Assembly: GCA_973895155.1 (NCBI GenBank)
Contig: OZ316894.1
Span: 26,769,240-26,833,239, forward strand
Length of the DNA: 64,000 bases
Direction: 5' to 3'
Origin: Marsupella aquatica
Lineage: Eukaryota; Plantae; Marchantiophyta
Notes under the pieces: generated by a model
The model's database searches: none
Told to the model about the DNA's origin: nothing
What the model saw: the letters and a program-made list of their open reading frames with translations, nothing else
Part shown: in pieces, positions 12,676 through 48,274 of the stretch
Numbering within the stretch: the first letter of the stretch is position 1
Layout of the letters: every line of letters begins with the position of its first letter
Translations under genes and position numbers: made by a program

Positions 12676-12687
12676 GCTCTGATACCA
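12676..12687 (-). promoter_or_regulatory. Primer-binding site, initiator tRNA-Met type
   Basis: TGGTATCAGAGC on the minus strand, 2 nt from the 5' LTR. Confidence 0.95.
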
Positions 12688-12689
12688 CT

Positions 12690-13033
12690 TGTTGAGCATA
12701 GACGACATTCGTAACGGCAAGCCCATGAACCATCCAACGCACAAGAGTCGACACAGAGAGATACGTGGTTCACCTCCACATGAGGCTACGTCCACGGGAA
12801 CATACAAGAGCTTTACTGCACTCTAGGCCGACCGGCCATACCAAGCATCCACAGCACAAGCTCTTCCTATCTCTCAACTAGCTCCATAACAATGAGCCTT
12901 TGTTCCACCAGGGTCTGGCATCAGCCCTGGCTATATACACAACAGCACTACCGCTAACATTAGCTAAGTCCTAACCCGAGTTAGACTAACTATGGTTAGC
13001 TCATGAGTCACAAGACTAGAGCAATATCTAACA
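12690..13033 (-). repeat. 5' LTR of the Copia element
   Basis: 344-bp direct repeat of 6296-6639. Confidence 0.96.
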
Positions 13034-24148: not shown

Positions 24149-24156
24149 TATAAAAA
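24149..24156 (+). promoter_or_regulatory. Candidate TATA box of the family-B LTR
   Basis: TATAAAAA in a GC-rich context about 100 bp upstream of the ATG at 24257, followed by a pyrimidine-rich leader. Confidence 0.55.
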
Positions 24157-25376
24157 GGGAGCCGACCCTTTGTAGTGCACCAGTCCATCAGTCCGCGCGC
24201 CAGCTTCGACCCCAGCTCTCTCGTTCGCTCTTACTCGCCACTACTATCTCCTCTGAATGTCGCACACGGTCCTCTCCAGTTCGGCCAGTCGATTCTGGAC
24301 GCAGTTCCTATCTACCGGAAGACACTTGGCCGACTCGTTGAAACACGCCAACCCGCACCGATACAAAATCGAACGCGAGTACGAGAGAGCCATCCGCCTA
24401 GCAGGACGACACCGCTATATCCTTAACTTTGACTACCCATCTCAGAGCGAGCTCTACCGACCAGCAGAGGTATCTGGGTACTTCTTCAACGAAGACAAAT
24501 ATATCGGTTTTGGGGAAGCATTGCTTCGGCTCTCGGACAAGGTCTTCAATATCCCGGGTACGATCGACTTGCAACGACATCACTTCGACCACATCCCTAC
24601 TCAGGTTCAGGCTATCATCAACAACGAGTCCAGCGCTACCCGTCCGACAAGGACATCTGCACTTGCTTTGGAGAACCTCTACCAGCACCTGCAAAGCTTC
24701 ATGGGAACTAGACCCTCAACCGCCGGCGCCGGCCCAGTCGGCCCCATACCCGTACCCGCACCAATTCAGCTTCAGCCTCAACTTTAGCCTCAACTTCAGC
24801 CTCAACCTCAACCTAGCCAAACCCAACCGCCGATTGCCCCGCCAGTACAAGTACGCTCTGTCATCGACGCAGTGGATCTTAGCGACGACAACGAGGCTAC
24901 CCCACCCTTGCTCAGGCGGCCCAGAAGAGCAAACACTCAAGGGGCCGATACTACATCGTCCCCTCCCCATGCTCGGACCCAAGGAGCGGCTCCAGCAGAC
25001 AACACGGTGACCGTGGCCGCTCCCGGCCCATTACTAAAGGTGGTAGCACTACCTATGCCCGATAGAGAGGATGGGGAGGTGTCACCTTCCCCGAGCCAGT
25101 CACGGGGGAAGAAGAGGAAGGAACCCACCATTGTATCCGGGTTACCATTGGCCACGGTAGCCGTGGCCAAGGTGACAATGCACCGCATGGGGGAAAACGT
25201 GCATAAAAACATCCTCCATCCCAAGCATGCGGTGTACCTGAAGACTCAGGGATTCGAGCACCTCGCCTCTCTCCCCTGGAACACTTGCAGGTACTACGGG
25301 GAGGACATGACGGAATTCGTCAGGAATTATGATGACGCACGTCAACAAACTTGGCTGCGGGGAAGGAATATGTCCC

Positions 25377-28300
25377 TGTGGTGCGTCCCATGGCTCCCTA
25401 AACCCAAGAAACCCCCCAGCTCAAGCCGATTCCCGCAGGTTTCGTGCTCGGCGAGGCCGTTTCCGCGGCTTAGCGGCATGGGACGCTGCTAACCTTCTAC
25501 TACTACTATTAACATTTTACACACATATACTGGACAGATCCTTCATCGGGTCATGAGATACGTAGCCGGCCTAATATAGGCCTTCCCCTGTCTTCCCCTG
25601 TCTTCCCCTCCGTCTTGTTAGGTATGTTTGGATTCCGCCGCCGGAATGATCCCCAATAGGCTTGGTTAAGCCGCTAAGACCTCTCTCAGCTCGACACATC
25701 CAACTCTCACTCCCCTGCTTACTTTCCTTCCTTCTGTTGATGTGGGCACTCTTCACACAAGTTAATGCGACACACAAATAGCAAAATGACTCATTCTGAC
25801 TGAGTCATACCATGCACTTGCCATACAAACAGTACATCTCATACACAAGTTCTGCGAACTAAGCCGTGAGGCCAACTCTATTCAGCTCTTAGGCATGAGG
25901 AAACATGAATATACACAAGGGTCACTGTATGACTAACCGAGAGCTTCTCATACTACTTGATCCCAGCCCGGCTGGTGCAAACTAAAAACTTGCTAAAGAA
26001 GAGGCCCTGAGCTCCCCGCTGCCCAGGTACTTATCCTGGTAGTGGATCCGCCATTCTTTGCATCATAAGCCTAATCTACTTAACAGTAATCTACTTGCCC
26101 GAATCTACCTATGTACAGCAAGGCAGGAGCACAAGTGTTGCTCCTACCAGTGGGACCGCAATCCCACTAAGCTAAGTGTCAGGGCCGCTCCTGGTTCTGA
26201 TCCTAATCCTAAACGTGGAGATCCATGCCCGCCCTGCCCACTCACGCCTCCTCCCTCCACGTCCGCCCTCCCTAAAAGGAACGGCGCCCTTGCACCGTCA
26301 CGACACCGGTGGTGGATCCTCAATGGACGCCCCCAACACTTCCTCCTCAGCCACTGCCGTTGGCCCGCCTACTGACAGATTACCTGCCCTTGACCGAGTC
26401 AACTCTCCATCGGCCTGACTGGGTCCACCTTCGGCTTCAGCCTCGACACCGGCCTCGGCAATACCCACGGCTTCGGCCTCAGCCACTCCCACGGCTTCGG
26501 CTTCAGCCACTCCCACGGCTTCGGCTTCAGCCACTCCCACGGCTTCGGCTTCCCCTTCCCCTAGGGTAGTTGGATCCTTAGCCGTGACCCTGTCTGGGGT
26601 CGGTGCTGGGTCTACCTCCTTGATCACCACGGCCTGTGAAGTCGTATTACTCCTTGACCCTGAAGGTTTCCGCTTCTTCTTCGTTGGTGGCTCGGCAGCT
26701 GGTCCCTTCCCCTTCCCACTTACTTCCGGCACTGGTGCAGGTGGCGCGGCTTGTCCTTCGGCAATTACCACCCCTGGTAACTGGTTTGTCCCAACAGGAG
26801 ATGGACCTGCTGCAGCTAAGCATTTAAATACTGCGGCTTGTTTCTTCAGCCGCTCTGTTTGGTTGTCGGCCCGCCGCTGTAGGTTCTCCATCTTCCTCGT
26901 GATTTCCTCCAACTCCTCTTGGGTTTCATCCAGGTCCTTACGTGCCCCCTCCAGCTCGTTTTTGGCCTCCTCCTGCTCCCTGTGGGCTTCCTCCAATTCC
27001 TTCTTCAAGGTAGCCTTCTCCTCCTGGGTTGCTCTTAGCTCCTTGTCGAGCTCTGCAATGATGACAGACTCCATCTGGTTCATCTTGGCGTAAGTCTGTT
27101 CGAGCATCTCGTCCTTCTCCCTTAGGTCGGCCTTGAAGCTGGCCGTCAGGGACGCAAGCTCCTGCTGCAGCGCCATAATCCCTTGATAGGATTTCCCTAA
27201 CTCGACCTCCTTCTGCTCAAGGGCTCCGCGGATTTTCTCGAGCTCCCCTTTCAACGCCCATTCCTTTCTTTGGGTCTCCGCCATGGCCCGGCTGTTGGCT
27301 GTTATGTGGGCCTCCTCTGTATTCTTCAGCTCTTGCTTCCACTTTTCCCTTTCTTTGATCGTGTCGGCCAACTCTTCCTGCGTCTGAGTCAGTTTATCCT
27401 TGATATTCTGATTATCAGCCTGCGCGGCGTCCAACTGCCCCTGCATGATGTTCAGCTCATGTCGTTTAATCCGCAGTTCATCTTGGGCTTTCTTGGCCGC
27501 CCTTAGATCTTCAATCTCGGCTTCCATCCTCCTAAGCCGCCGAATGACCTCGTCCTTCTTGCTTCTCTCTAAAGCCACCGCTTCTTCTAATTGGTGCTTC
27601 TCCAACTGCTCCCTATGGAAAAAGGGTCCTACCTCCAACTCCTCTCCAAAGATGCCGAGCGCAAGTTCCCCACACATCTCACCATACTCCATGGCTCTAT
27701 TCTTAGCGTAGGTGGAGTAAGTAGAAGTGATCGGCATTGCCCATCGTGGCCTCTGCTCCCAAGCCGTCCTGCGGATCTCTTCAATCGTGGCTAGAGGTTT
27801 GCTTCCTTTTTCGGCTAGCCGCCTGATGTCCTCCGGCCAATCTCCTCCTGGTAAATCCTTTTCCTTAGCCAGGGCGGCCTCTTCCTCCTCCTTGATTCGC
27901 TCCTGAAATTCCTGCACCGTCTGTTTTATGCCGTCGAAGCTCGGGGGAGCAACATCTGGTGGGGGAGACTCAGGGCTACTCTGCTGGTTGGGGTCCCCTC
28001 GCACTACCCTTGGAAGTGTGGGGACAAACCGGCCACAGGTCCTTACTCCTGGAACGTGATGGTCCGACCCATAGCCGGAATTATCATGGCTGCAGTCCTC
28101 CACTGCCTCCTCTACCTCTTGGACATCCGGCTTCTCCCTCTCCTCTTCGTTGGTAGGAGCTTCAGGCAATTCTGCCTCAGATTCGGAGCTTGAGGTTCCC
28201 ACGTACATTCGAACACCTGGCTTGGATTCCGGCCTGATTCTCTCCTTGTCTCCAGCAAAGGGGTTTTCTCTTGTGAGCCGGTGTAGGCCTACCTCTGTAG

Positions 28301-30058
28301 TAGTGTCCTGCATTGTTGCCGTTGCCGTTGTTTTTGCCGATGCCGATCTCTTTTCTTTCTCCAGTAGTTTCAGCAGACTCTGCATGCCTGGTTGCTGCAT
28401 CGGCAAGTCTTCCTTCCTGGGCCTAAACACCTGCTCGATCGTAGGACTAACAGGTGGTTGAGGCTTCTCAGCCAACGGCCTCGGCGTTGGAGCTTCCTCG
28501 GGTGCCCTTACCTGCAGGGGAAGTACCGGGGCAAAAGTCTGACCTCTGGCATACCGGCACAACAGCGGCATGTGATAGCCAAGCCGCGACACGCTCCCCA
28601 TGCTGATTACCTGCTGCTCCTCCTTTAAGATCTTCTTCAATTGGTTGAGGAGGTACCCGTTGTAGTCCCGGCTTGGGTCTGGCCTTTCTGCCAGATAGAC
28701 CTGTGCCTTGCCGATCTCTGCCCTCGGCAAGTTACAATGCATGGTCACCCGCAAGAAGTCGATCATCTCTCCTATGTGCGGGTTGGTGCAGGTGTTCCGG
28801 AAGAAGCCATTCTTCGTTGATGGCCCGGGGAACGACCGGAACTCCTTGTCAGGCAAGGTCTTCCTGGTATCAACTTTGGTCTTATTGCCCATCGGCAAGC
28901 CAAACACTTCGGCAATCACCTTGGGAGTAAGATAGAAATCCTTCCCATATATCCTCGTGCAATTGGTCTCGGGTTCCCATGACCCCACGAATTCTAATAG
29001 GTCTGACTCCGGTACCTCCGGCTTCAGCCATGGTAATCTTACAAAGGCCTCCAAGCCGGATCCGGCCATGAAGCCTTGGTACTTCTTGGTCTGCATGGCC
29101 GTAAAGCATGCATCCTCCTCCCGTGCAAAATGTAGTTGCACCTCCACCGGTAGGGTTGCCGCCCAGCCCTTCCAGGTGTCATCCCTGGTTGGAATGGCCT
29201 TGATGGGATCGACCTCCTCCTCTTCGGCTTCTCCCTGCCTCCTGCTCTGCTGCTCGGCTGGCTTCTTTGGTGCCGCCGACCTCGTTCTTTTTGCCGGGGT
29301 GGCTTCATCATTGACGGCTCCCTTCCTCTATCTCTGCTGCCGTGGAGGTTTCTCCTAGCACCGTTGCCCGGGTCCACCTTTCCGTGCTACCCTTTAATTC
29401 CCAGTGTATGTCGTTGCAGTTCTTGATGGCCTCTCGGATGCCGACGACGCTGTCTTTGCAAAACAGAAGATCGTCGAGTTGATTGGAAGTAGGCGTCCAC
29501 AGGAACTCGTCCTTGATGAGTTTGCCTCCTAAGAAAGCCGTCTTCTGCAGCTCCCACAATCGAGCGAGCTCCTGCCGTTCTCGAGCTGCCCTTTCTGACT
29601 CCTCGTCCTCGTAAGTCTTGATGTACTCAGTTGCCCGTTCGAACAGGCATCCCCAGAAATGTGCCGCTTGATTGACGTTGCTCATACCCTCCTTAGGTTG
29701 ATCGTCGGTATCTACTCTCTCCCCGAGTGCTTGCCTAAGCAGCTGACAGTAGTTGGCCTCCCGTAGTCGTCTGCCTAGTTCGTGCTCGCAAATGAGCCAC
29801 CATCTCCTGCAAGCGCTCCTTACCCCTCTCCTCTGCCGGTCCTTCTTCCCGTTGATCCTTCCTAGCCGCCGACGCTTAACGCGCCCTAACCCTAATCGGT
29901 TTTTCACCCTCAGCCTTACCTCCGGCCTCTGCCCGGGTTCCATGGTTGCCCCTAATTGTTTATATTTTCCTTGTTTTGTCACTATACTAAGGTGTTCCTA
30001 GGGTGCCTTCCTGCTTTACCCACTTAACCGGCCGAGTGATTCCTGTCTAGGCATCACA
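25377..30058 (-). repeat. 3' LTR of the family-A element (4682 bp)
   Basis: Near-identical to 36280-40937, and 24 bp longer because of one extra AEAEAVGV unit. Confidence 0.96.
26298..29943 (-). pseudogene. LTR-encoded PMD-like/coiled-coil protein, 3' LTR copy, with a single 2-bp frameshift near 29330
   Basis: ORFs 29308-29982 and 26298-29147 join into the frame that is continuous in the solo LTR (GAG ATG AAG AGG there, GAG ATA GAG here). Confidence 0.88.
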
Positions 30059-33000
30059 TAGCTCCCCACTTAATTGTGAAGCGTCCTCGCGAACAACTTC
30101 ATCTTCGTCCATATAGTATTTCTTGAGGCGGTCATAATGGATGCGAACTGGATATACCTCTCCCGTAATGTTGGCCAATTGTACGGAGCCATTGGGGAAC
30201 ATCATGGTTACTCTAAAGGGTCCTAACCAGCGAGTGTAAAGCTTCCCTGGAAACCTACTATACCTACTGTCATAAAGTAACACAAGATCACCGGTATGAA
30301 TACTAACTACTTTTAACCTTTTATCATACTGCTGCTTCATGATATTCTGTCTATATTCTACTCTCTCGGCTGAAATCATTCTCGCTTCCTCTAAAGCTTC
30401 TAACCTATATTCTCGCTCCTTTAGGCTCTCCTCCGCTGAGGCTCTTTCCTCAATTGTAACTTGAAATGTCGGTATCTCAAGTTGCATGGGTACCAGGGCT
30501 TCTTGTCCAAAGGTTAAGAAGAAGGGTGTATGACCGGTAGTGGATTTATAGGCCAGATTGTAAGCAAAAACAGCAGCAAACAATTTATCATCCCAATCGA
30601 GTTTGTTCTGAGCTACTGTCTTGTTCAATATCTTTCCTATGATTCCGTTTGCTCGTTCTGTCAACCCGTTTGCCTTTGGATGGTAGGGAGTAGTAGGCCT
30701 ATGTTTAACTAAATATTGCTCATTTAAACGACTAATTATATCATTCAAAAATTGGGTTCCTCTATCACTAACTAATTCTAGGGGTGCTCCATACCTGGTG
30801 AAGATCTGCTCATACATGAATCTAGCCGTAGTAATTGCATCATCCTTCATTGTTGGTCTGGCCTCTACCCATTTAGTTGCATAATCCGTAGCCAGGATTA
30901 TGTACTTGTTCCGTCGAGGGTGGGTCAGTGGTTTCAGAGGTCCAACGTAATCAATACCCCACTTCTCGAATGGTGCCAGAGGTAGAATAGGGTGCAGTGG
31001 ATGCCTGGTGGACGCCCTTGGTCCTCCCGCTCGTTGACAAGGATCGCATTGTTTGATAAACTGATAGACATCCTTGTGCAAGGTGGGCCACCAGTAACCG
31101 GCATTTAATATTTTCTTAGACGTGGTTACTGGGGCAAAATGTCCTCCGGCCTCCTCTCCATGCATGGCCCGTAGGACTCGTTTTACCTCTCTCTTTTCCA
31201 AACACCTTTGAATCGTGCCGTTGATTCCATGCTTGTGCAGTATGCCTTTAATGCACTGATACTGTCTGACCTTCCGCACAAAGACTGCGGCTTGCTCTCG
31301 GCTTAATCCTGGCTGTAATCTGGAAGTGCTGAGAAATTGTAAAATCTCAGGGTACCATGTACCAGCTATTTCCACAACGAATAGCTCCTCGTCGGGGAAT
31401 CGATCATCGATGCAATCCGTGGCAGGTTTACCTGTGATCCTTGAAAAGAAGTCGGCATTGGCATGTAACTTTCCCGGCTTGATCCTCAGCTCATAGTCAA
31501 ACTCCTGTAATAGCAAAATCCATCTTGCTACTCTGCCTGTAAGGTCCGGCTTATTGACTAGGTACTTCAAACTTTCATGATCAGTATGAAAGATTACCTT
31601 GTACCCTAGTAAATAATGCCTAAACTTTTTACAAGAATAAATGACTCCTAATGCTTCTCTTTCCGTGGTAGAGTAGTTCCGTTCGGCATCGGCAAGCTGA
31701 CGGCTTGCGAAGTATATGGGATGGTCCCTTCCTTTCTCATCCAACTGACTTAGTACTGAGCCAATACAGAAGCCCGAGACATCTACAAAAACATGAAAAT
31801 CTTTGTTCCAGTCCGGTGCTATCATGACTGGGGCCTCTACTAACATCTGCTTCAATTCTACCACCGCTGTGACTCGTTCGGGTGTGGGTTCGAAGTCTGC
31901 TCCTGCCTTGAGCATATTGGTTAATGGTAAAGCCAGCTTGGAAAAATCCTTGATGAACCGGCGATAGTAACCAATGCATCCCAAGAAGGATCTTACATCC
32001 TTTATGTTCTTAGGTTGCATGATATCTAGCCATACTGCTAGCTTACCTTTGTCAATCTCAATGCCCTTCCTTGATACCTTGTGACCTAGTAGCACCCCCT
32101 CGGTTACTGCAAAAAAACATTTATCTGGGTGTAACTTGAGACCCACCTCCCTACATCTCATGAAGGTTTTCCTGAGGTATTTAGCATGTTTCGATGCCTT
32201 CCCGAATACTGCAAAGTCATCAATGAAGATTTCCATGAACTTTCTCAAGTAATCATGAAAAATGTTCACCATTAATCGTTGGAACATAGCTGGTGCGTTG
32301 CAGAGTCCAAACGGCATACGATTGAAGACATAGATCCCCCATTCCGTGATGAAGGCCGTCTTGATTTGGTCTTCCTGCCGAATCCTGATTTGGTTATAAC
32401 CAGAGTATCCATCCATGAATGAATATAGTTCATGACTGGCTACCATGTCTAGTACCATATCAGTAAACGGTAAAGGAAAATGGTCTTTTAATGTTGCTTC
32501 ATTCAGCTTCCTGTAATCCTGACAAACCCGGATCTTGGGTTTACCATCGGGTCCAGCTTTTTTGGGAACTATCACAATTGGAGACACCCAGTCTGAATGC
32601 AGGATTGGAGTGATGAATCCAGCTTCCACTAGTTTGTCGATTTCTGTTTTGACCAGCAGGGAATACTTCGGGTTCATCCTTCGAATTGGTTGTCGAAATG
32701 ATTTGGCTCCTAACATGAGATCAATTCGATGTTCCCCTAGTGTTGGATCTACGCCCTTTAGATCTTGGTGACTCCATGCAAACACATCCTGAAATTCAAT
32801 CAATAAGTCACTGATCTCTTTCTCGAGCTCAGGTGCTAGGTTTCTCCCTAAGTTCAGTTCTCTTCCCTCTCCTAAGTCGAGCTTCCGATATTGCCGTGCT
32901 TGGATCATATTAATCTGCTTCTTCAAATTCGGGTCCAGTTCGGCTTCCAGTCTCTCTAATCTCATACCTCCATAAACTGGGATCTCGGCTGGACTAGCCG

Positions 33001-33313
33001 AGTCGGTCCCTTCCTTGGTGTCCATAGATTGTCCCCTTACCGGTCTATTCAGTCTTGAATTAGTGGCCGGCTCCCCTTCCTGCCTTGGCTCTGGATCGTG
33101 TCTGTCCATCTCATCCACCTCTTGCTCCTGCAAGTTAGGCCGCTGTGCTCTCTCGGCTTCTAATAGGGCCTCAATTTGTTCTGCCCTCGTAATCGGCTTG
33201 TATGCCGATCCCTTGGTATTTAATTCCTTGCCGATGATCGATGGCGTTGTGGACCCCGTCGGCTCTGCCACAATGCCTGCAGAAAATCCACTGTCCCTGC
33301 TACTGCTCCCCAC
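30047..33313 (-). CDS. pol: Gypsy pol (RT, RNase H, integrase)
   Basis: WVSPIVIVPKK, CQDYRKLN, FMDGYSGYNQI, MPFGLCNAP, FIDDF, NYSTTEREAL, H...H...CDPC, WGIDYVGP, SDRGTQF, WLGPF. The stop codon lies inside the 3' LTR. Confidence 0.96.
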   Translation of the reverse strand: MGSSSRDSGFSAGIVAEPTGSTTPSIIGKELNTKGSAYKPITRAEQIEALLEAERAQRPNLQEQEVDEMDRHDPEPRQEGEPATNSRLNRPVRGQSMDTKEGTDSASPAEIPVYGGMRLERLEAELDPNLKKQINMIQARQYRKLDLGEGRELNLGRNLAPELEKEISDLLIEFQDVFAWSHQDLKGVDPTLGEHRIDLMLGAKSFRQPIRRMNPKYSLLVKTEIDKLVEAGFITPILHSDWVSPIVIVPKKAGPDGKPKIRVCQDYRKLNEATLKDHFPLPFTDMVLDMVASHELYSFMDGYSGYNQIRIRQEDQIKTAFITEWGIYVFNRMPFGLCNAPAMFQRLMVNIFHDYLRKFMEIFIDDFAVFGKASKHAKYLRKTFMRCREVGLKLHPDKCFFAVTEGVLLGHKVSRKGIEIDKGKLAVWLDIMQPKNIKDVRSFLGCIGYYRRFIKDFSKLALPLTNMLKAGADFEPTPERVTAVVELKQMLVEAPVMIAPDWNKDFHVFVDVSGFCIGSVLSQLDEKGRDHPIYFASRQLADAERNYSTTEREALGVIYSCKKFRHYLLGYKVIFHTDHESLKYLVNKPDLTGRVARWILLLQEFDYELRIKPGKLHANADFFSRITGKPATDCIDDRFPDEELFVVEIAGTWYPEILQFLSTSRLQPGLSREQAAVFVRKVRQYQCIKGILHKHGINGTIQRCLEKREVKRVLRAMHGEEAGGHFAPVTTSKKILNAGYWWPTLHKDVYQFIKQCDPCQRAGGPRASTRHPLHPILPLAPFEKWGIDYVGPLKPLTHPRRNKYIILATDYATKWVEARPTMKDDAITTARFMYEQIFTRYGAPLELVSDRGTQFLNDIISRLNEQYLVKHRPTTPYHPKANGLTERANGIIGKILNKTVAQNKLDWDDKLFAAVFAYNLAYKSTTGHTPFFLTFGQEALVPMQLEIPTFQVTIEERASAEESLKEREYRLEALEEARMISAERVEYRQNIMKQQYDKRLKVVSIHTGDLVLLYDSRYSRFPGKLYTRWLGPFRVTMMFPNGSVQLANITGEVYPVRIHYDRLKKYYMDEDEVVREDASQLSGELCDA
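30061..30070 (-). promoter_or_regulatory. Short polypurine tract
   Basis: AGTGGGGAGC, 2 nt before the 3' LTR and within the pol reading frame. Confidence 0.7.
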
Positions 33314-34911
33314 TTAGCCGTTTCATCCAATTGGTCTACATCCTTAACTTCCTCCGGAATTGCAGCTAAAAAGGTGGATTCTATTGTAAAGCAGTCCTCG
33401 ACCTCTTCGTCTTCTTCTTCCAAGTCACCTTCCATTGGTTCTTGCCATAATCCGCTGGGGGGTACCTCTGGTCCAAAGACACCTTCTTTGGTTAGGTTAG
33501 TGAAGCATTCTAACCAACGTACTTCATCGGCTGACTCCAGTCCACTATCGTACCCATCTACTTCCCTTATGCTTTTCCTACGGTCATCCTTAGTGTCCCA
33601 GGATACCGTGATAGAGGGGGTCCCGAAAGTGAACTGCTTTTTACCCCAATCTTCTATTACCTCGGCTAGGTACAGCCATGGCCTACCAATCAATAGCCGG
33701 AATGACGTAGGATTTACCGGCTTCATTACTACATAGTTAATGCTAAAGAAGATACCTCCTATCTCTGTCTTGATGCCGGTTAACACTCCCGTCGGAATGA
33801 CCTGATATCCATTGGCCATGTTCAACACTCTTCCAGTCATCTCCGGTGTTAGACCCCACCCTTTTGCTGTTGAATCAATCATAATACATACCCCTGATCC
33901 TCCATCGATGGGTACCCGTAGTAATAATTCTCCTTGAATCATTAATGGTAATGCTGGGGCTCCTTGATCTTCTTCTATCATTAGTACGTCGGATCTGGTT
34001 GCTACCTTGGGTAATCTCGGCTTGCCGAGAATAGCCTTCCTTAATTGCTTCCGGAAGTACGGGCTATTTTTCAATAGTTGACCTACTGTTGCCGAGACTC
34101 TAGATTCTAGTACATCTTTAGCCAGGTCATAGGGAACAATCGGCTTCTCCTCTGGTGGTGTTTCCTTGGATTCGGCCAGTTTTGCCACGCTAGTCTCCAC
34201 AGCTGTTGGGTCTTCCGAAGCAAACAATGCTTTTGCTCGTTTTACATCTTTGGCAATGGCTTCGGTATTCTCCAGGGTTTCTAATTCTCTTAGTTGTTCC
34301 TTAACACTAGCCGTAACAGAGGGGTAGAACAACTTAGGATGATCTCGATTGAAGTCGCTATCTTGTGAAGGATTGGTTTCACTGGTGGGCTCATGGCTTA
34401 CCTGTATTGCCGGAGCCCTCCCTTCTCCTTCTGTTGATGTTGACGAAGAGTCGATCCTTTCCTCCGTAACCTTCCCTTTATTTTTGGCTAGCCCATCCCA
34501 CCTTTCCTTCCTTCTGGTAGATCGAGTAGAGACCCGGTAGCAATCATGATCTAAATCCTCCTCTGAGAAGGTTGATAGGGCTTCGGCCTCATCATCAGAT
34601 GGTACGAACTCTGCCTCGGCATCCTCTTGCCATCCTAGTTCGATGTGGTTGATTTGAACTCCTCCGGGGGTAGTACCTGGTGGTAAGATCTTGATCGGCA
34701 AAAGCTTATGATTTGCGGCCAGGCCTGCCAACCAAGTAGGACATTGCCCTAGCATATGACCTTCCTGTCGGCATCCCATACATAGCTGAGCTGGTTGTCC
34801 ATCACCCTGTTTGCGTGCATTCGGGCATTCTCTAGCAAAATGGCCAGGTTGACCACAATTATAGCACGCCGCAAATCTTTGCACATTCGGCCTAGGAGGT
34901 ACTGACGGGTT
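33220..34911 (-). CDS. Gag C-terminus (two CCHC knuckles) plus aspartic protease
   Basis: CYNCGQPGHFAREC, CMGCRQEGHMLGQC, VPIDGGSGV and LLIGRPWL. It is in frame with gag across one TAG. Confidence 0.9.
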   Translation of the reverse strand, partial: NPSVPPRPNVQRFAACYNCGQPGHFARECPNARKQGDGQPAQLCMGCRQEGHMLGQCPTWLAGLAANHKLLPIKILPPGTTPGGVQINHIELGWQEDAEAEFVPSDDEAEALSTFSEEDLDHDCYRVSTRSTRRKERWDGLAKNKGKVTEERIDSSSTSTEGEGRAPAIQVSHEPTSETNPSQDSDFNRDHPKLFYPSVTASVKEQLRELETLENTEAIAKDVKRAKALFASEDPTAVETSVAKLAESKETPPEEKPIVPYDLAKDVLESRVSATVGQLLKNSPYFRKQLRKAILGKPRLPKVATRSDVLMIEEDQGAPALPLMIQGELLLRVPIDGGSGVCIMIDSTAKGWGLTPEMTGRVLNMANGYQVIPTGVLTGIKTEIGGIFFSINYVVMKPVNPTSFRLLIGRPWLYLAEVIEDWGKKQFTFGTPSITVSWDTKDDRRKSIREVDGYDSGLESADEVRWLECFTNLTKEGVFGPEVPPSGLWQEPMEGDLEEEDEEVEDCFTIESTFLAAIPEEVKDVDQLDETAKWGAVAGTVDFLQALWQSRRGPQRHRSSARN

Positions 34912-36210
34912 CTAAATAATCCGAGGATACATCTCTCCTGGATTGTTCCTTAACCCTGACCACAGAGATGCAGGTCTGTTGGATAGGTCTCGTGCTCCAG
35001 TCTCACTGATGCCGAAAACACTATCAGCGGCATCTCCCAAAAAGTACTCTACTTCTCCCTGACATGGTCTGATCTCGGCCACATGCCGAACATGATTAGT
35101 ATTAAGCTTAGGACAAGCATCTTTATGGTGTCCGGTTTTATAACATAAGGCACACCATACAGAGCTATCCTCCTGTACTACCTTCTTCTTTGGTTTTACC
35201 TCTGCAATGATAGCCTTAAGTTGCTCGGTAAGGGCTACGATGTTATCTGGTGGCTTAGCCTCCATCTTGACTTTCGTCTTCCCTCTCCTTCTGCCCTTCC
35301 TTTTCCTAGTTTTTTCTTCTTCAGAACTAGAAGATGACTCACTCTTGCTACTCCCACTATCCGAGCTTGACTTATCACTTCTAGACTTCTTGGAATGTTT
35401 CTTCTTCTTATCTTTTTTCTTATGGGGTGATCCCTCCTCTGATGAGGAACTCTCAGACTTAAGCTGTTTCTTCCGGCTTGTGATATCTGCATTAATGTAT
35501 AATTGAATATCCTTAATTGCTTCGGCTAAGGTCTCTGGGTTCTCCTTCCTAATTGCAAAACTCATCTTCTGTGGCAAAGCATTCACCAACCATTGAAGTT
35601 GCATACCTTCAGATGCATTGGTCTTTGTACGTCTTACCAGTTTCTGAAAGCGTTGCAAGAACTTCCTGAAGGATTTGTTCTCCTTGAACCGAAGTTGTCC
35701 CAACTTCAGCACTGCTAGTTCTGAAGTTCCAATGGGTCGAAACTCCTTAACAAAGAGTGTTTTGAAGATATCCCAGATGGCTTGATCTTCCACATCTAAT
35801 GCTCTGTACCAAGGCCTAGCCTCACCCTTGAACAGGCCGGGAAGAATCTGCATCTTGATGGCCGATTCTCCATTTGCTGCAGCGGTTCCCTCGAAATCAT
35901 CCAACCATTCGTCCGGATCCTCATCTCCTCTCCCATGAAATGCCTTGTAATGTATGCGCGACCGCTGGCTCAATCTGGTCCCTGGCCTCTCGTCTGGCCG
36001 TGCCTCTGGTTCCCCCATGTCGGTTGGAGACTCACTTCTCCTTACCGACTCTTCTTCTGGTATGTCTTCTTCGACGCCACTTCCAGTTTCGGAGCTACCA
36101 GCTCTTTCTGCCCCTCTCAGTCGCTGTGTATCATGCCACCCGGCGAGCTGCTGCAGTCGAGCTCTCTCCCGTTGAATCACTCTTTCTTCCCTCGGCGTAA
36201 GGTCAGTCAT
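34912..36210 (-). CDS. gag: Gypsy gag (capsid domain, Ser/Lys-rich linker, CCHC knuckle)
   Basis: FHGRGDEDPDEWLDDFE, GEARPWY, WDIFKTLFVKEF and CALCYKTGHHKDAC; the ATG is about 70 nt after the 5' LTR. Confidence 0.92.
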   Translation of the reverse strand: MTDLTPREERVIQRERARLQQLAGWHDTQRLRGAERAGSSETGSGVEEDIPEEESVRRSESPTDMGEPEARPDERPGTRLSQRSRIHYKAFHGRGDEDPDEWLDDFEGTAAANGESAIKMQILPGLFKGEARPWYRALDVEDQAIWDIFKTLFVKEFRPIGTSELAVLKLGQLRFKENKSFRKFLQRFQKLVRRTKTNASEGMQLQWLVNALPQKMSFAIRKENPETLAEAIKDIQLYINADITSRKKQLKSESSSSEEGSPHKKKDKKKKHSKKSRSDKSSSDSGSSKSESSSSSEEEKTRKRKGRRRGKTKVKMEAKPPDNIVALTEQLKAIIAEVKPKKKVVQEDSSVWCALCYKTGHHKDACPKLNTNHVRHVAEIRPCQGEVEYFLGDAADSVFGISETGARDLSNRPASLWSGLRNNPGEMYPRII

Positions 36211-36256
36211 TACCTACGCTTCCGTTCTAACTTCATATCTCACGGCTTAAGAAATG

Positions 36257-36275
36257 CCCCCTCCATCTAGCGCCA
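36257..36275 (-). promoter_or_regulatory. Primer-binding site (non-Met type)
   Basis: TGGCGCTAGATGGAGGGGG, 4 nt after the 5' LTR. A TGGCG start is typical of non-chromovirus elements. The cognate tRNA was not assigned. Confidence 0.8.
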
Positions 36276-36279
36276 AAAA

Positions 36280-39200
36280 TGTGGTGCGTCCCATGGCTCC
36301 CTAAACCCAAGAAACCCTCCAGCTCAAGCCGATTCCCGCAGGTTTCGTGCTCGGCGAGGCCGTTTCCGCGGCTTAGCGGCATGGGACGCTGCTAACCTTC
36401 TACTACTACTATTAACATTTTACACACATATACTGGACAGATCCTTCATCGGGTCATGAGATACGTAGCCGGCCTAATATAGGCCTTCCCCTGTCTTCCC
36501 CTGTCTTCCCCTCCGTCTTGTTAGGTATGTTTGGATTCCGCCGCCGGAATGATCCCCAATAGGCTTGGTTAAGCCGCTAAGACCTCTCTCAGCTCGACAC
36601 ATCCAACTCTCACTCCCCTGCTTACTTTCCTTCCTTCTGTTGATGTGGGCACTCTTCACACAAGTTAATGCGACACACAAATAGCAAAATGACTCATTCT
36701 GACTGAGTCATACCATGCACTTGCCATACAAACAGTACATCTCATACACAAGTTCTGCGAACTAAGCCGTGAGGCCAACTCTATTCAGCTCTTAGGCATG
36801 AGGAAGCATGAATATACACAAGGGTCACTGTATGACTAACCGAGAGCTTCTCGTACTACTTGATCCCAGCCCGGCTGGTGCAAACTAAAAACTTGCTAAA
36901 GAAGAGGCCCTGAGCTCCCCGCTGCCCAGGTACTTATCCTGGTAGTGGATCCGCCATTCTTTGCATCGTAAGCCTAATCTACTTAACAGTAATCTACTTG
37001 CCCGAATCTACCTATGTACAGCAAGGCAGGAGCACAAGTGTTGCTCCTACCAGTGGGACCGCAATCCCACTAAGCTAAGTGTCAGGGCCGCTCCTGGTTC
37101 TGATCCTAATCCTAAACGTGGAGATCCGTGCCCGCCCTGCCCACTCACGCCTCCTCCCTCCACGTCCGCCCTCCCTAAAAGGAACGACGCCCTTGCACCG
37201 TCACGACACCGGTGGTGGATCCTCAATGGACGCCCCCAACACTTCCTCCTCAGCCACTGCCGTTGGCCCGCCTACTGACAGATTACCTGCCCTTGACCGA
37301 GTCAACTCTCCATCGGCCTGACTGGGTCCACCTTCGGCTTCAGCCTCGACACCGGCCTCGGCAATACCCACGGCTTCGGCCTCAGCCACTCCCACGGCTT
37401 CGGCTTCAGCCACTCCCACGGCTTCGGCTTCCCCTTCCCCTAGGGTAGTTGGATCCTTAGCCGTGACCCTGTCTGGGGTCGGTGCTGGGTCTACCTCCTT
37501 GATCACCACGGCCTGTGAAGTCGTATTACTCCTTGACCCTGAAGGTTTCCGCTTCTTCTTCATTGGTGGCTCGGCAGCTGGTCCCTTCCCCTTCCCACTT
37601 ACTTCCGGCACTGGTGCAGGTGGCGCGGCTTGTCCTTCGGCAATTACCACCCCTGGTAACTGGTTTGTCCCAACAGGAGATGGACCTGCTGCAGCTAAGC
37701 ATTTAAATACTGCGGCTTGTTTCTTCAGCCGCTCTGTTTGGTTGTCGGCCCGCCGCTGTAGGTTCTCCATCTTCCTCGTGATTTCCTCCAACTCCTCTTG
37801 GGTTTCATCCAGGTCCTTACGTGCCCCCTCCAGCTCGTTTTTGGCCTCCTCCTGCTCCCTGTGGGCTTCCTCCAATTCCTTCTTCAAGGTAGCCTTCTCC
37901 TCGTGGGTTGCTCTTAGCTCCTTGTCGAGCTCTGCAATGATGACAGACTCCATCTGGTTCATCTTGGCGTAAGTCTGTTCGAGCATCTCGTCCTTCTCCC
38001 TTAGGTCGGCCTTGAAGCTGGCCGTCAGGGACGCAAGCTCCTGCTGCAGCGCCATAATCCCTTGATAGGATTTCCCTAACTCGACCTCCTTCTGCTCAAG
38101 GGCTCCGCGGATTTTCTCGAGCTCCCCTTTCAACGCCCATTCCTTTCTTTGGGTCTCCGCCATGGCCCGGCTGTTGGCTGTTATGTGGGCCTCCTCTGTA
38201 TTCTTCAGCTCTTGCTTCCACTTTTCCCTTTCTTTGATCGTGTCGGCCAACTCTTCCTGCGTCTGAGTCAGTTTATCCTTGATATTCTGATTATCAGCCT
38301 GCGCGGCGTCCAACTGCCCCTGCATGATGTTCAGCTCATGTCGTTTAATCCGCAGTTCATCTTGGGCTTTCTTGGCCGCCCTTAGATCTTCAATCTCGGC
38401 TTCCATCCTCCTAAGCCGCCGAATGACCTCGTCCTTCTTGCTTCTCTCTAAAGCCACCGCTTCTTCTAATTGGTGCTTCTCCAACTGCTCCCTATGGAAA
38501 AAGGGTCCTACCTCCAACTCCTCTCCAAAGATGCCGAGCGCAAGTTCCCCACACATCTCACCATACTCCATGGCTCTATTCTTAGCGTAGGTGGAGTAAG
38601 TAGAAGTGATCGGCATTGCCCATCGTGGCCTCTGCTCCCAAGCCGTCCTGCGGATCTCTTCAATCGTGGCTAGAGGTTTGCTTCCTTTTTCGGCTAGCCG
38701 CCTGATGTCCTCCGGCCAATCTCCTCCTGGTAAATCCTTTTCCTTAGCCAGGGCGGCCTCTTCCTCCTACTTGATTCGCTCCTGAAATTCCTGCACCGTC
38801 TGTTTTATGCCGTCGAAGCTCGGGGGAGCAACATCTGGTGGGGGAGACTCAGGGCTACTCTGCTGGTTGGGGTCCCCTCGCACTACCCTTGGAAGTGTGG
38901 GGACAAACCGGCCACAGGTCCTTACTCCTGGAACGTGATGGTCCGACCCATAGCCGGAATTATCATGGCTGCAGTCCTCCACTGCCTCCTCTACCTCTTG
39001 GACGTCCGGCTTCTCCCTCTCCTCTTCGTTGGTAGGAGCTTCAGGCAATTCTGCCTCAGATTCGGAGCTTGAGGTTCCCACGTACATTCGAACACCTGGC
39101 TTGGATTCCGGCCTGATTCTCTCCTTGTCTCCAGCAAAGGGGTTTTCTCTTGTGAGCCGGTGTAGGCCTACCTCTGTAGTAGTGTCCTGCATTGTTGCCG

Positions 39201-40937
39201 TTGCCGTTGTTTTTGCCGATGCCGATCTCTTTTCTTTCTCCAGTAGTTTCAGCAGACTCTGCATGCCTGGTTGCTGCATCGGCAAGTCTTCCTTCCTGGG
39301 CCTAAACACCTGCTCGATCGTAGGACTAACAGGTGGTTGAGGCTTCTCAGCCAACGGCCTCGGCGTTGGAGCTTCCTCGGGTGCCCTTACCTGCAGGGGA
39401 AGTACCGGGGCAAAAGTCTGACCTCTGGCATACCGGCACAACAGCGGCATGTGATAGCCAAGCCGCGACACGCTCCCCATGCCGATTACCTGCTGCTCCT
39501 CCTTTAAGATCTTCTTCAATTGGTTGAGGAGGTACCCGTTGTAGTCCCGGCTTGGGTCTGGCCTTTCTGCCAGATAGACCTGTGCCTTGCCGATCTCTGC
39601 CCTCGGCAAGTTACAATGCATGGTCACCCGCAAGAAGTCGATCATCTCTCCTATGTGCGGGTTGGTGCAGGTGTTCCGGAAGAAGCCATTCTTCGTTGAT
39701 GGCCCGGGGAACGACCGGAACTCCTTGTCAGGCAAGGTCTTCCTGGTATCAACTTTGGTCTTATTGCCCATCGGCAAGCCAAACACTTCGGCAATCACCT
39801 TGGGAGTAAGATAGAAATCCTTCCCATATATCCTCGTGCAATTGGTCTCGGGTTCCCATGACCCCACGAATTCTAATAGGTCTGACTCCGGTACCTCCGG
39901 CTTCAGCCATGGTAATCTTACAAAGGCCTCCAAGCCGGATCCGGCCATGAAGCCTTGGTACTTCTTGGTCTGCATGGCCGTAAAGCATGCATCCTCCTCC
40001 CGTGCAAAATGTAGTTGCACCTCCACCGGTAGGGTTGCCGCCCAGCCCTTCCAGGTGTCATCCCTGGTTGGAATGGCCTTGATGGGATCGACCTCCTCCT
40101 CTTCGGCTTCTCCCTGCCTCCTGCTCTGCTGCTCGGCTGGCTTCTTTGGTGCCGCCGACCTCGTTCTTTTTGCCGGGGTGGCTTCATCGTTGACGGCTCC
40201 CTTCCTCTATCTCTGCTGCCGTGGAGGTTTCTCCTAGCACCGTTGCCCGGGTCCACCTTTCCGTGCTACCCTTTAATTCCCAGTGTATGTCGTTGCAGTT
40301 CTTGATGGCCTCTCGGATGCCGACGACGCTGTCTTTGCAAAACAGAAGATCGTCGAGTTGATTGGAAGTAGGCGTCCACAGGAACTCGTCCTTGATGAGT
40401 TTGCCTCCTAAGAAAGCCGTCTTCTGCAGCTCCCACAATCGAGCGAGCTCCTGCCGTTCTCGAGCTGCCCTTTCTGACTCCTCGTCCTCGTAAGTCTTGA
40501 TGTACTCAGTTGCCCGTTCGAACAGGCATCCCCAGAAATGTGCCGCTTGATTGACGTTGCTCATACCCTCCTTAGGTTGATCGTCGGTATCTACTCTCTC
40601 CCCGAGTGCTTGCCTAAGCAGCTGACAGTAGTTGGCCTCCCGTAGTCGTCTGCCTAGTTCGTGCTCGCAAATGAGCCACCATCTCCTGCAAGCGCTCCTT
40701 ACCCCTCTCCTCTGCCGGTCCTTCTTCCCGTTGATCCTTCCTAGCCGCCGACGCTTAACGCGCCCTAACCCTAATCGGTTTTTCACCCTCAGCCTTACCT
40801 CCGGCCTCTGCCCGGGTTCCATGGTTGCCCCTAATTGTTTATATTTTCCTTGTTTTGTCACTATACTAAGGTGTTCCTAGGGTGCCTTCCTGCTTTACCC
40901 ACTTAACCGGCCGAGTGATTCCTGTCTAGGCATCACA
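36280..40937 (-). repeat. 5' LTR of the family-A element (4658 bp)
   Basis: Direct repeat of 25377-30058, followed by the PBS and gag. Confidence 0.96.
37201..40822 (-). pseudogene. LTR-encoded protein, 5' LTR copy
   Basis: Carries the same 2-bp deletion (near 40209) plus an in-frame TAG at 38767-38769. Confidence 0.88.
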
Positions 40938-43900
40938 GTCCCTCACGGAAGAACGGCTCAAGATGATCTTTCGGTTACCCGAAGGGGACCACCGAGTCGA
41001 ATCACGGGCCCCCGGGGGCAAGGGAGCCAAGTACCAATCCTCGAGCTTTCCCTCAGAGGGAGCAGTGGACAACGGGTTCGTGATGAGGACCTGCCTCATC
41101 CCCGAGATAGCCGAGCGACTAGAGTTCCAAAGGTACGCCCTCCACATGATGGAACCCCGGGGGGAGATCTTCGCCGCCCAGGTTATCCAGGTCGAGAACT
41201 ATCGACCTAGGAAGTGGGCGTCGTACTTTGTTAAGAAATTCCATGAAGAGATGGAGCGGCGAAGGAAGACGTTGTACATTGGAGGGAAGGCGTATTTCAC
41301 TGGCCACATTGAGATCATTCTTGAGTGGTACGCTCGGTTGGATCGACGAACCCTTCCCCGTGTCAACATTACAAGGCTGGTCCCAGCTAGGTGGGTTTTC
41401 CCGGCCTTGGAGAGACGGCCCCAACCCGAGGCCCGAAGTCCAGCGGACACGCAGGCTTCATCCACCCCACCCCCACAAGTAGCTGTAGTCGTGACCGAGG
41501 AGGTACCGGATGGGTCGGTTATCGCAACCGTAGATGCAATCCAACAAGTTGGGCTAAGTACAGAAGTCGGTACAGCGGAGGTCTTACTCGAGCCCGGGTC
41601 TCCCAAAGACCCACCGGTGGCTGTTTTGGAGAACCAGACTTTGCTGCAGGAGGACACTCCAGCCCCTTCCAACACGTCCCCAGGGCTGGATGTCACTGCC
41701 CCGGCCCCCGCGCGTGTTGACGTCTGCGCGTGTCCAACTCTGGACAGGCACAACCTGGACCACCCGGAACTCTTTGTACCGGATATATTTCTGAACGGGC
41801 TTCTAGGAGATTTCTCTCATCAAATTGCCCGGGATACCGGGGAGTTCATGGCCCGGAAGGTAGCCTGTTTCTTCAATCAGGAGTTGGTTGCCGCAGTAAA
41901 AGCAGGTCGGGCTCAATCAGAGGCCCTTCAGAGGATAGAGCGGTACCGAGTGGAGTCCGTATACTTAAAGAATGAAGTTGCAGCTCAAGAGGCTGAGCTT
42001 CTGCAACTACGACCCAAAGTTGCAGCCGCCGACGAGTTGTTAGCAAAGGTGCACACCCTTACCGCCCTAGCGAGCAGGCCAAAGCTGGAAACGAGGCCGA
42101 GATTTCACGGCTCCGGTCCCAGATTGACAGTTTGAAGAATCAAATTGTCATCTGGCAGAAAGACCTGGAGGAGGCCGAAGAACGGGCCCAGCGGGACACT
42201 GCGGAGATAGCCACGCTACAAGCCGAAGTAGCGCAGCTTCAAACCAAAGCCGGGAAGCAGGACCAGTTGGTGGGCAAGCTGACGAGCGATGCCCAGCAGC
42301 TGGAAGAGGCATGCTAGGAGGCAGCGGAGGAGACGGACGCGGCGAAGCGAGAGAACAAATCTCTGCTAGACCAAGTCCAGCTCCTCAAGTCGGACAACGC
42401 CAGACTTCGCAAGCAGTGGGATGACCGTTCCCACTCGGACGGCTCTGGCAAGCGTGCCAGACATTAGCGGCGGAGAGGAATAGAATAGGGTTAGGAATAG
42501 CTAAGTCAGGCTATTGGGACAGGCACCTGCCTTAGTTATAGCAGCACTGCCATGTTGTCCAGCCTGCGTAGATTAGGATCTTCTAATAAGACACAGCCGT
42601 TTTTTGGCCTGACAGTCAGCTTAGTTAGGACCTTAGTCAGCAAATCTTCGGGCGGGAGGACACTCTGTTTCTTGGCCCTCAGTATTTAGTGCACCCCTCG
42701 GTAGAAGCAAGGGGGGGTTTTTAGTCTCAGAGTTGGACATCCGTGGTATGTGCGGGGAGTCCCGACCTCTGGGAGTGAAAGAGTACCAAGGGGAGGGGGG
42801 TAGGACTAAGCTCGCCGAGCGAGTGTGGAGCCGGGCTCCGTTGTAGTGTACACCCTCGGCCTTGAACCTGTTCATTCCGGAGCTGTCGGGTCAACCAAGT
42901 GTACACTTATGTCCCCTGTGTAGTAAAATCCTTTCCCATTACTTCCTTCGTGTAAATCGAGATTGTATGCTTGTGCGTGTGTATGCGTGTATGAATCTCG
43001 TGTATAGGTGACAACGCCGGGCCGAACGCACTCCTCGAGTCGTGCACGAGGTGCAGCTTGCGAGTATGTGGTTGCGAGCACGGGTTGAGGACCTGTATCA
43101 TTGAATCCGGATCAAAGGCGGACAACACAAAGGTTTAGAAGTCCTTAGGCCGGGGTCGATCCTGCTATCGACTAAGGTACGTTCCGGCGGCGGAACACAA
43201 ACCATACCTAGGAGGTGTCTGTATCTAACAATATGCGCACTTAGCGCTAATTTACATGAATTAGGTGCATTACGTTCTTCCCTCCCTGCCCGAACCCTCA
43301 TATTTACGAAGGATGTGCCCGTTTAAAGCTGAAGCCCGAGTTAAGGCCAAGGCTGATGACATGACAATAGGATTTCCCTAACTCGGCCTCCTTCTGCTCA
43401 AGGGCTCCGCGGAGATCCTCGAGCTCCCCCTTCAGCGCCCTCTCCTTCCTCTGTGTCTCCGCCATGGCCCAATTGTTGGTTTCTCTGTGGGCCTCCTCTG
43501 CGTCCTTCAGCTCCCACTTCCATTTCTCCTTTTCCTTGACCGCGTCGGCCAACTCCCCTTGGGTCCGAGTCAGTTTATCTTTGATAATCTGATTATCAGA
43601 TTGAGCGGTATCCAATTAGCCTTGCATGATGTTGAGCTCATGCCACTTAATCCGCAGCTCATCTTGGGCTTTCTTGGCCGCTTTCAAGTCTTTTGCCTTG
43701 GCTTCCTTCTCCCTAAGCCGTCGGATGACCTCGTCTTTCTTCCTCCTCTCCAAAGCCACCGCTTCTTCCAATCGGTTTTTTTCCAACATCTCCCTCTGGA
43801 AAAAGGGTCCCTGCTCCAACTCCTCCCCAAAGATGTTGAGCGCAAGTTCCCCACACATCTTCCCGTACTCCATGGCTCTGTCTTGCGTATAGGTGGAGTG

Positions 43901-48253: not shown

Positions 48254-48259
48254 TATAAA
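48254..48259 (+). promoter_or_regulatory. Candidate TATA box near the 5' end of the family-A LTR
   Basis: AAATATAAAC about 95 bp from the LTR start, conserved in the older copy at about 45788-45797. Confidence 0.45.
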
Positions 48260-48274
48260 CAATTAGGGGCAACC

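Follow-up and report, generated by a model that had tools for sequence, protein, structure and literature searches.

A Gene of About 1,120 Codons Within the Long Terminal Repeats of a Liverwort Ty3/gypsy Retrotransposon

Introduction

Mouse mammary tumor virus (MMTV) carries sag, a gene of about 320 codons encoding a membrane superantigen, in a long terminal repeat (LTR) of 1.3 kb. We describe here a Ty3/gypsy retrotransposon, family 1, in which a gene of about 1,120 codons lies within the LTRs; it was found in a 64,000-nucleotide stretch of the liverwort Marsupella aquatica (GCA_973895155.1, contig OZ316894.1, positions 26,769,240 to 26,833,239), hereafter the window. The available text of PMC9412291 places the sag/naf open reading frame (ORF) of MMTV in the U3 region, with expression from the U3 promoter P2. 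As in MMTV, the whole ORF of family 1 is in the LTR (here in both LTRs of a full-length element and in a solo LTR), is duplicated at replication, and has its own upstream LTR promoter, which is predicted here. In contrast, MMTV is a retrovirus and sag encodes a membrane protein, whereas the gene described here occupies 72% of a 4.7-kb LTR, has a putative U3 position, and encodes a product of nuclear type. Our survey of full-text literature, with most subscription journals, Repbase and GyDB outside its scope, found only MMTV as a case of an LTR-borne gene and the nearest design. No published retrotransposon precedent was found within the same limits, which agrees with the suggestion in an earlier note on this DNA that the architecture is undescribed but is no proof of novelty. 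The "ORFs within the LTRs" of PMC6673714, in the portion available, are an annotation of full-length elements and not LTR-borne genes.

Athila elements, as described in the accessible parts of PMC6317226 (with Additional files 4 and 5), PMC11728184 and the ATHILAfinder preprint, resemble the family-1 element in being non-chromoviruses without an additional RNase H (aRH), in their 5-bp target site duplication (TSD), in size (7.3-22.8 kb, a range that includes our element), and in having a sense extra ORF 3' of pol. The Athila extra ORF is internal and precedes the polypurine tract (PPT), whereas here it is inside the LTR and the PPT overlaps the end of pol. LTRs of Brassicaceae Athila are 1-2 kb compared to 4.7 kb here, and family 1 has a primer binding site (PBS) that starts with TGGCGC but differs thereafter from theirs. 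Unlike Athila, the family-1 element has gag-protease (PR) and reverse transcriptase (RT) in different frames, and no ORF in the window matched Pfam PF03078 or PF20167 at E up to 0.1. The ATHILAfinder preprint, in its accessible text, assigns no function to Athila-type extra ORFs, and this function is a standing open question.

Ogre, Retand and Tekay-Retrosat2 elements are similar to family 1 in carrying extra ORFs and in the length of their LTRs, 3 to about 5 kb (PMC6317226, PMC3485330, PMC7264820), although those ORFs are described as belonging to the internal region. Ogre and Retand share the PR-RT break with the family-1 element but have an aRH. The aRH-less Tat groups Z1 and Z2, which are defined by RT phylogeny, are also alike in lacking the aRH and having the PR-RT break; they are found in liverworts and other non-flowering plants according to the available sections of PMC10508981 and PMC13468544. 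VANC proteins are anti-silencing proteins of VANDAL Mutator-like transposons (PMC5735166, as far as its available text goes). Like VANC and PMD, the product of our gene is an accessory protein of a transposon that combines conserved domains and a coil with variable regions bearing repeats; VANC was its top, though weak, fold match. VANC, however, belongs to a DNA transposon, has its gene in the element body and its target motifs in tandem arrays, and is described as dicot-specific.

Results and Discussion

In self-BLAST of the window, segments 25377-30058 and 36280-40937 formed a direct repeat at 99.2%, with a third copy lying inverted near 48160-52820. The direct repeats were the LTRs of one element, whose order on the minus strand was 5' LTR (40937-36280), TTTT, a PBS-like sequence, gag-pol, the PPT AAGTGGGGAGCTA, and 3' LTR (30058-25377); all coordinates are collected in Table 1. 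The earlier note had bounded these LTRs by TG/CA ends, TSD, PBS and PPT, and had estimated their share of the element at about 60%. We found TSD GTCCC on both sides, PBS-like TGGCGCTAGA.. beginning 4 nt beyond the 5' LTR, the PPT abutting the 3' LTR, and an LTR share of 60.0%. In REXdb, a PBS for tRNA-Asp or tRNA-Asn is a mark of Athila. The PBS here may be that of tRNA-Asn, an identity not confirmed by a literature query on the PBS word, which returned irrelevant results; no tRNA gene was found within the window. The pol stop codon (30047-30049) was 12 bases inside the 3' LTR, with zero spacer between pol and LTR. Over 4,658 aligned bases, 12 substitutions separated the 2 LTRs, along with one 24-bp indel in the AEAEAVGV repeat. 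At an assumed substitution rate of 0.9-1.3e-8, insertion occurred about 0.1-0.15 million years ago. Contigs from 4 public runs, representing 4 organisms, spanned the whole element, and the empty-site joint (25371/40938) was present in contigs of 3 of the 4 runs.

The same LTR termini were found in the full element, in a young solo LTR and, at one end each, in 2 old copies (B and C), placing the gene wholly inside true LTRs. Duplication of the gene at every replication, as the earlier note had proposed, follows from the definition of an LTR. The single sense ORF that had been reported to cover more than 70% of each LTR covered 72% when counted from its methionine codon 87 (Met87) and 78% from the first ATG. 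In the young solo LTR, the frame from the first ATG was 1,207 codons long and interrupted once, by a stop at codon 828. All 3 young copies in the window were broken; each carried 1 or 2 lesions, as first reported, and every lesion was open in another copy. The central domain was unbroken in the window's copies. The lesions were private or partial: the form without the 2-bp deletion was present in contigs of 4/4 public runs (36-100% of depth at 40208), and a different letter at the 38769 stop made up 99-100% of depth, also in contigs of 4/4 runs. Because both LTRs of the element share the 2-bp deletion, the parent RNA likely already carried a broken gene; breakage of the gene thus did not keep the element from inserting, which is what a trans-acting factor would predict.

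The ratio of nonsynonymous to synonymous substitution (dN/dS) was determined from Nei-Gojobori counts for the young solo LTR compared to old copies B and C. The earlier note had pointed to one older copy (46037-47329) with a nearly unchanged domain and drifting linkers, had suggested purifying selection, and had proposed dN/dS as a check. The older copy was indeed there, as a part of copy B, and copy C is a second one. In the central domain (codons 246-469), dN/dS was 0.145 for B and 0.116 for C (Fisher p 3e-12 and 3e-19). The N-domain (codons 88-205) gave 0.22 and 0.29, the linker 0.33 and 0.29, the coil 0.26, 0.16 and 0.21, and the C-terminus 0.64 and 0.47. All 8 region comparisons tested gave dN/dS below 1 (Fisher p 0.03 to 3e-19), and shifted-frame controls for the N-domain and central domain gave 0.84-1.81. 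These data indicate that the LTR gene is under purifying selection. The claim for the domain stood, with the correction that selection extended to the linkers and coil.

For codons 1-87, dN/dS was 1.29 (p 0.71). This lack of selection on the first 86 codons suggests that the gene starts at Met87 and encodes a product of about 1,120 amino acids, the first 86 codons of the 1,207-codon frame being probably a leader. Homologues P0006, P0023, P0030 and P0019 and the gene of a second family, described below, all open with M-x-(F/L)W at the position aligned to Met87. The first ATG was rejected as the start, with unselected codons downstream of it as far as Met87 and a distance of only 21 nt from the TATA box. 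Within the size of 1,100-1,200 codons given earlier, the probable product is about 1,120 amino acids once the leader is set aside. The order in the product was N-domain, basic patch, central domain, acidic linker, coiled-coil-like region, KKKRK, and AEAEAVGV repeats. The coiled coil was called from sequence and a weak ATG16 Pfam match (E 0.003).

A solo LTR of a second family was the target of the family-1 element. This family-2 solo LTR was itself inserted in old copy C, with the empty site in contigs of 4/4 public runs. Its gene was broken and spanned roughly 880 codons (N-domain, central domain and coil); its second part had additional stops and changed frame near 42000-42135. The LTR tail was TGTA-rich. 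One TATAAA (24149, LTR position 360) was followed by a CT-rich leader and a first downstream ATG at position 468. Within the window, the genes of families 1 and 2 aligned at 28% identity, with E values from 3e-10 to 4e-10, and the family-2 halves abutted in the alignment. Pairwise BLAST of the 2 N-domains was not significant (E 0.07); their homology was drawn from a multiple alignment. The 22 contig loose ends listed, of 103, showed no PBS behind the end of the family-2 LTR, and how family 2 is oriented with respect to its gag-pol was presumed from a shared motif only. A second family with the same layout suggests that the architecture is old and shared rather than a one-off.

Together these insertions form a five-layer nest (22083-54318), with the family-1 element in the family-2 solo LTR, that LTR in C, B in C, and the young solo LTR in B. 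An N-domain remnant of a third, diverged family was observed at 3854-4090 on the minus strand (42% identity).

The only TATAAA of the family-1 LTR, at LTR position 95, was unchanged in old copy B and is the predicted promoter of the LTR gene. A TGTA/TGTG-rich block in the non-coding tail resembles plant poly(A) signals and may serve as one. In the tail it was followed by the hairpin-like TTCCGGCGGCGGAA and then, in young copies, by TATATTA. The tail differed from that of copy C at 86/843 positions (divergence 0.11) compared to 68/192 synonymous sites (p 6e-16; dS range 0.43-0.70), indicating that it is constrained. A 29-base hairpin block was common to families 1 and 2 (local score 41 vs 30 for the best of 200 shuffles), and further LTR families likely share it. 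At the family-2 block (TTCCGGCGGCGGAA..CAAAC.ATACC, region 43175-43210), contigs diverged on both sides and depth peaked. Just after the gene stop, a purine-rich tract followed by TG at solo LTR about 3779-3793 (window about 51938-51952) was kept in copies B and C. One possible role is that of a plus-strand primer, either vestigial or second, an idea weakened by 3 similar tracts that the same rule found inside the gene. From this arrangement, each LTR looks likely to be a promoter-gene-terminator unit.

Where the gene lies in the transcript map could have more than one answer. In the map we favor, to which we give about an even chance, the gene is in U3, genomic RNA starts in the tail, and the 5' TATA is a separate promoter. 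A PPT in the last pol codons and a pol stop inside the LTR lead us to infer that the plus-strand primer site shifted upstream, so that an Athila-type 3' extra ORF became U3; this map is preferred because one such shift would capture the ORF together with its promoter. We regard as possible, at well short of even odds, a map in which the 5' TATA is the sole promoter and the gene lies in an R region of about 4 kb, with the remaining probability left to other maps. Early poly(A) addition in the 5' LTR would then give the gene mRNA, read-through would give a genomic RNA of about 15 kb holding the gene twice, and gag-pol would depend on an RNA that is spliced or has a start of its own, whatever the protein's function. 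This map is consistent with a TATAAA that occurs once, at the 5' end, in the LTRs of both families, with an identical order of TATA, leader, gene, TGTA-rich block, hairpin and end in both, and with the absence of the downstream TATATTA from copy C. It also demands, however, leaky 5' polyadenylation and a U3 of only about 125 nt, while the TATATTA of young copies followed by the TGTGTAAAATGTTAA block could give a normal short R, and a PPT shift produces the U3 arrangement in one step.

Alternatively, the LTR position could be incidental, an ordinary 3' extra ORF having been swept into U3 by the PPT shift. Expression of the gene would then be confined to the 3' LTR of full elements, through subgenomic or spliced RNA, and the 5' and solo copies would be silent passengers. 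A PPT directly at the pol end would suit this explanation, as would the breakage of every copy in the window, and dN/dS is blind to the LTR copy from which expression comes. The LTR itself contains the TATA box and leader, however, giving each copy an identical promoter sequence, and the layout, at about 4-4.7 kb, is kept in 2 families at 28% protein identity, which argues for long-term retention. We consider incidental position unlikely. Our confidences in the alternatives are partly independent and need not sum to one.

To identify the protein, a phmmer search of 1.84 billion representatives was performed and gave 20 matches at E ≤0.001. Two of these were annotated in the liverwort Calypogeia fissa, and a third came from a profile search. 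These relatives and the PPR-DYW genes nearby suggest that the DNA comes from a land plant, likely a bryophyte. P0014, a repetitive bacterial-type false match, was excluded from every alignment; P0004, P0006 and P0008 matched the N-domain only. Word-index protein searches gave no matches with an 827-amino-acid piece, none among longer proteins with alignment A1, and 2 with alignment A2. In the ESM Atlas, neighbors of the window's domain were ATHILA ORF-1 (0.90, 157 shared features) and Transposase_32 (0.89), and those of a Calypogeia homologue were DUF1985 and PMD (0.85 each). PMD structurally resembles the DUF1985 domain of VANC, as stated in the accessible part of bioRxiv 2024.09.27.615353.

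VANC was set down as the hypothesis before the fold search, for which the query was an AlphaFold model from 24 sequences (pLDDT [predicted local distance difference test] 55.6, predicted template modeling score 0.53). VIA-align ranked VANC21-DNA (9lnk_A) first of 48,161 PDB chains (Z 3.8, root-mean-square deviation 5.0, 160/199 residues, about 6% identity); the runner-up had Z 2.4 with 81 residues aligned. On these models and neighbors the protein is probably not an orphan, and we lean toward its being a remote member of the ATHILA ORF-1/Transposase_32/DUF1985-VANC/PMD group.

Our main interpretation, at a probability of roughly 0.5, is that the product is a nuclear DNA-binding protein of the VANC/PMD/ATHILA-ORF1 kind that keeps family copies unsilenced, made from a selected and likely self-contained LTR unit. 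An anti-silencing or transactivating role by itself is an evenly balanced call. The 5' TATA would act as a dedicated promoter for the LTR-gene mRNA, like MMTV P2 for sag, while genomic RNA would start in the tail. The central domain would bind a short motif in the non-coding parts of the LTR, with TTAGG and the shared hairpin block as candidates; TTAGG, a motif picked post hoc, occurred 11 times there vs 2.7 expected and 7 vs 2.2. The protein would then oligomerize through its coil and relieve silencing in trans. Coil-mediated oligomers are predicted for VANC and the Athila domain in the available text of bioRxiv 2024.09.27.615353 and PMC13547354. Action in trans would let broken copies transpose, and the factor would then be supplied by every solo LTR as well. 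Its place in the LTR means that the gene is doubled with every insertion and is not lost when a solo LTR forms; solo LTRs did keep the whole gene.

Several observations weigh against this interpretation. The dN/dS between copies reflects selection on active ancestors and not on the window's copies, and with 0/3 young copies intact the gene was reconstructed across copies. TATATTA at LTR 4459, the one TATA-like box downstream, was missing from copy C, so that the second, main promoter in the tail is a candidate. Neither the central domain nor the 20 homologues matched ATHILA, Transposase_32, DUF1985 or PMD in Pfam (E up to 1), and Atlas scores of 0.85-0.90 are leads only. The VANC21 match was weak, with a Z of 3.8 below the tool's stated background of 7-8 and a modest model as query. 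A poorer model (pLDDT 46) did not have VANC21 among the best 50 of 96 matches, Foldseek gave no matches against PDB and BFVD, and profile searches of PDB sequences did not find VANC21. A top motif count of at least 11 was also reached in 53/300 shuffles, and no target motif was arrayed in tandem in the manner of VANC.

The protein could instead steer integration as a chromatin tether, with no part in anti-silencing. All 4 nested insertions in the window fell inside LTR genes of families 1 and 2, the integrase had no chromodomain match, and the product has a long coil and nuclear localization signal (NLS)-like motifs (PAKRTR and KKKRK), each of which would be in keeping with a tether. Nests arise passively in repeat-rich DNA, however, this is a single window, and the fold lead is toward an anti-silencing protein that binds DNA; we judge the tether improbable. 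An env-like membrane protein is far less probable still. A sense ORF 3' of pol is where env-like additional ORFs are found (PMC7264820), and such a protein could have a coiled coil, but the product had no hydrophobic or transmembrane segment (maximum Kyte-Doolittle 19-mer 1.1) and carries NLS-like motifs; this role is disfavored and was rejected. The least credible alternative, that the repeat is a segmental duplication, an assembly artifact or a separate transposon inserted twice, and not an LTR with a gene, has in its favor that 72% coding content is odd for a 4.7-kb repeat, and was ruled out by TSDs at identical termini in 2 independent young insertions, a PBS and PPT adjoining the repeat, a terminal inverted repeat matching at 7/8 positions, the shared ends of copies B and C, and the empty sites in public runs.

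The architecture is unusual and well supported; an anti-silencing function is testable but has weak support. With the gene, its likely promoter and a short constrained tail in one 4.7-kb unit in 2 families, binding and anti-silencing can be tested directly, using the unbroken central domain. A gene that outlives solo-LTR formation changes how element removal affects counter-defense. A broader proposal, that a lineage of Ty3/gypsy elements in non-flowering plants uses its LTR as an autonomous anti-silencing cassette with a VANC-type protein, its own promoter and target sites, is speculative, and we consider it less likely than not. If it is true, solo-LTR formation, the usual way in which a host deletes retrotransposons, leaves working counter-defense genes behind, and ATHILA ORF-1, Transposase_32, PMD and VANC would be one ancient fold family predating flowering plants.

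Pfam matches in the element were in the order gag, zinc knuckle, RT, RNase H, integrase, with a single RNase H directly before integrase and no match to an additional RNase H or a chromodomain. The protease region aligned to relatives carrying Asp_protease matches. The in-frame stop in gag (34912-34914), which lies between zinc knuckles, is probably a lesion. The -1 change between PR and RT falls where an in-register G_GAT_TTT precedes a pseudoknot candidate, which makes a programmed event likely. None of 300 shuffles reached the 16 pairs of the pseudoknot; nested folding of the signal was not unusual (z -0.65), only the pseudoknot count being so. The protease/RT boundary is an unusual place for a programmed -1 frameshift.

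The 5-bp TSD (in 2/2 young insertions), the length of 15.6 kb and the lack of an aRH and chromodomain fit Athila or an aRH-less Tat. Phygy/Selgy was rejected on the REXdb summary (4-bp TSD, 4.4-10 kb, no extra ORF), and the same summary table excluded Ogre and Retand. With its single RNase H, the element lacks the archaeal-type aRH that marks Ogre, Retand and TatI-III within Tat.

In metagenomes, pol matched at 19 loci (101 matches, 34-48% identity), and 3 of the loci had a single gag-pol frame of about 2,040-2,100 codons. The central domain was found by hidden Markov model (HMM) in 0/19 of these loci, a weak negative because only 7 have at least 3.5 kb downstream, several are the same element, and the HMM control was circular (built from the window's copies). 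No matches were kept from an integrase scan of viral contigs (0/3 pattern matches) or from LTR-gene ORF alignment in metagenomes (0/76). One metagenome relative (L007) had a 252-codon sense frame just 3' of gag-pol (7076-7831, plus strand), with no Pfam match and unrelated to the central domain.

Table 1. Positions of the retrotransposon features in the window
Feature	Position	Strand	Details
Full-length Ty3/gypsy element, family 1	25377..40937	-	15,561 bp; TSD GTCCC at 25372-25376 and 40938-40942
5' LTR	36280..40937	-	4,658 bp, TG..CA
3' LTR	25377..30058	-	4,682 bp, TG..CA
Primer binding site TGGCGCTAGATGGAGGGG	36258..36275	-	PBS-like, after 5' LTR and TTTT
Polypurine tract AAGTGGGGAGCTA	30059..30071	-	Adjoins 3' LTR; within last pol codons
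Gag-protease frame	33220..36210	-	Retrotrans_gag, zinc knuckle, protease-like region; in-frame stop 34912-34914
RT-RNase H-integrase frame	30047..33289	-	Entered by -1 frame change
-1 frameshift candidate	33213..33289	-	In-register G_GAT_TTT; 5 nt on, H-type pseudoknot candidate (9/10 and 7/8 pairs)
LTR gene, 5' LTR copy, Met87 to stop	37201..40564	-	Broken: 2-bp deletion near 40208, stop 38767-38769
LTR gene, 3' LTR copy	26298..29685	-	Same 2-bp deletion near 29329; one extra 8-amino-acid repeat unit
LTR gene, young solo LTR	48533..51898	+	1,121 codons from Met87; one internal stop 50756-50758
Central conserved domain	49010..49681	+	Also 39418-40089 and 28539-29210 (-); VANC/DUF1985/ATHILA-ORF1-like lead
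Sole TATAAA of 4.66-kb LTR	48254..48259	+	LTR position 95; 40838-40843 and 29959-29964 in the element's LTRs
Non-coding LTR tail	51899..52819	+	921 bp; TGTA/TGTG-rich block; TATATTA at LTR 4459
Hairpin-like motif TTCCGGCGGCGGAA, then CAAAC(C)ATACCTA	52550..52563	+	Also 36549, 25646, 22294 (-); family 2 at 43182
Young solo LTR, family 1	48160..52819	+	4,660 bp, TSD TGGCG; sits in old copy B
Old family-1 LTR copy B	45698-48159 and 52825-~54318	+	3'-truncated; interrupted by young solo LTR
Old family-1 LTR copy C	43372-45697 and 22083-23784	-	5' part missing; interrupted by family-2 solo LTR
Family-2 solo LTR	23790-25376 and 40943-43366	+	4,011 bp, TG..CA, TSD ATAGG; target of family-1 element
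Family-2 LTR gene, first part	24257..25375	+	N-domain and start of central domain; in-frame stop 24785
Family-2 LTR gene, second part	40939..42470	+	Rest of central domain, linker, coiled-coil-like tail

Other Features of the Window

A tandem repeat of about 267 bp (93.6%) was present at 54520-55062, just past the truncated end of copy B. Two decayed ORFs at 57035-60014 on the minus strand, which had no Pfam match, resemble CACTA transposase remnants by eye. A young copia element was located at 6296-13033 on the minus strand, with 344-bp LTRs (98.8%), TSD TCTTG, and one stop between the gag and pol frames. PPR-E-DYW proteins are typical organellar RNA-editing factors. Two PPR-E-DYW paralogues with 77% amino acid identity formed an inverted pair at 1-2234 (plus strand) and 16131-18713 (minus strand), the first of which runs off the window edge without stops.

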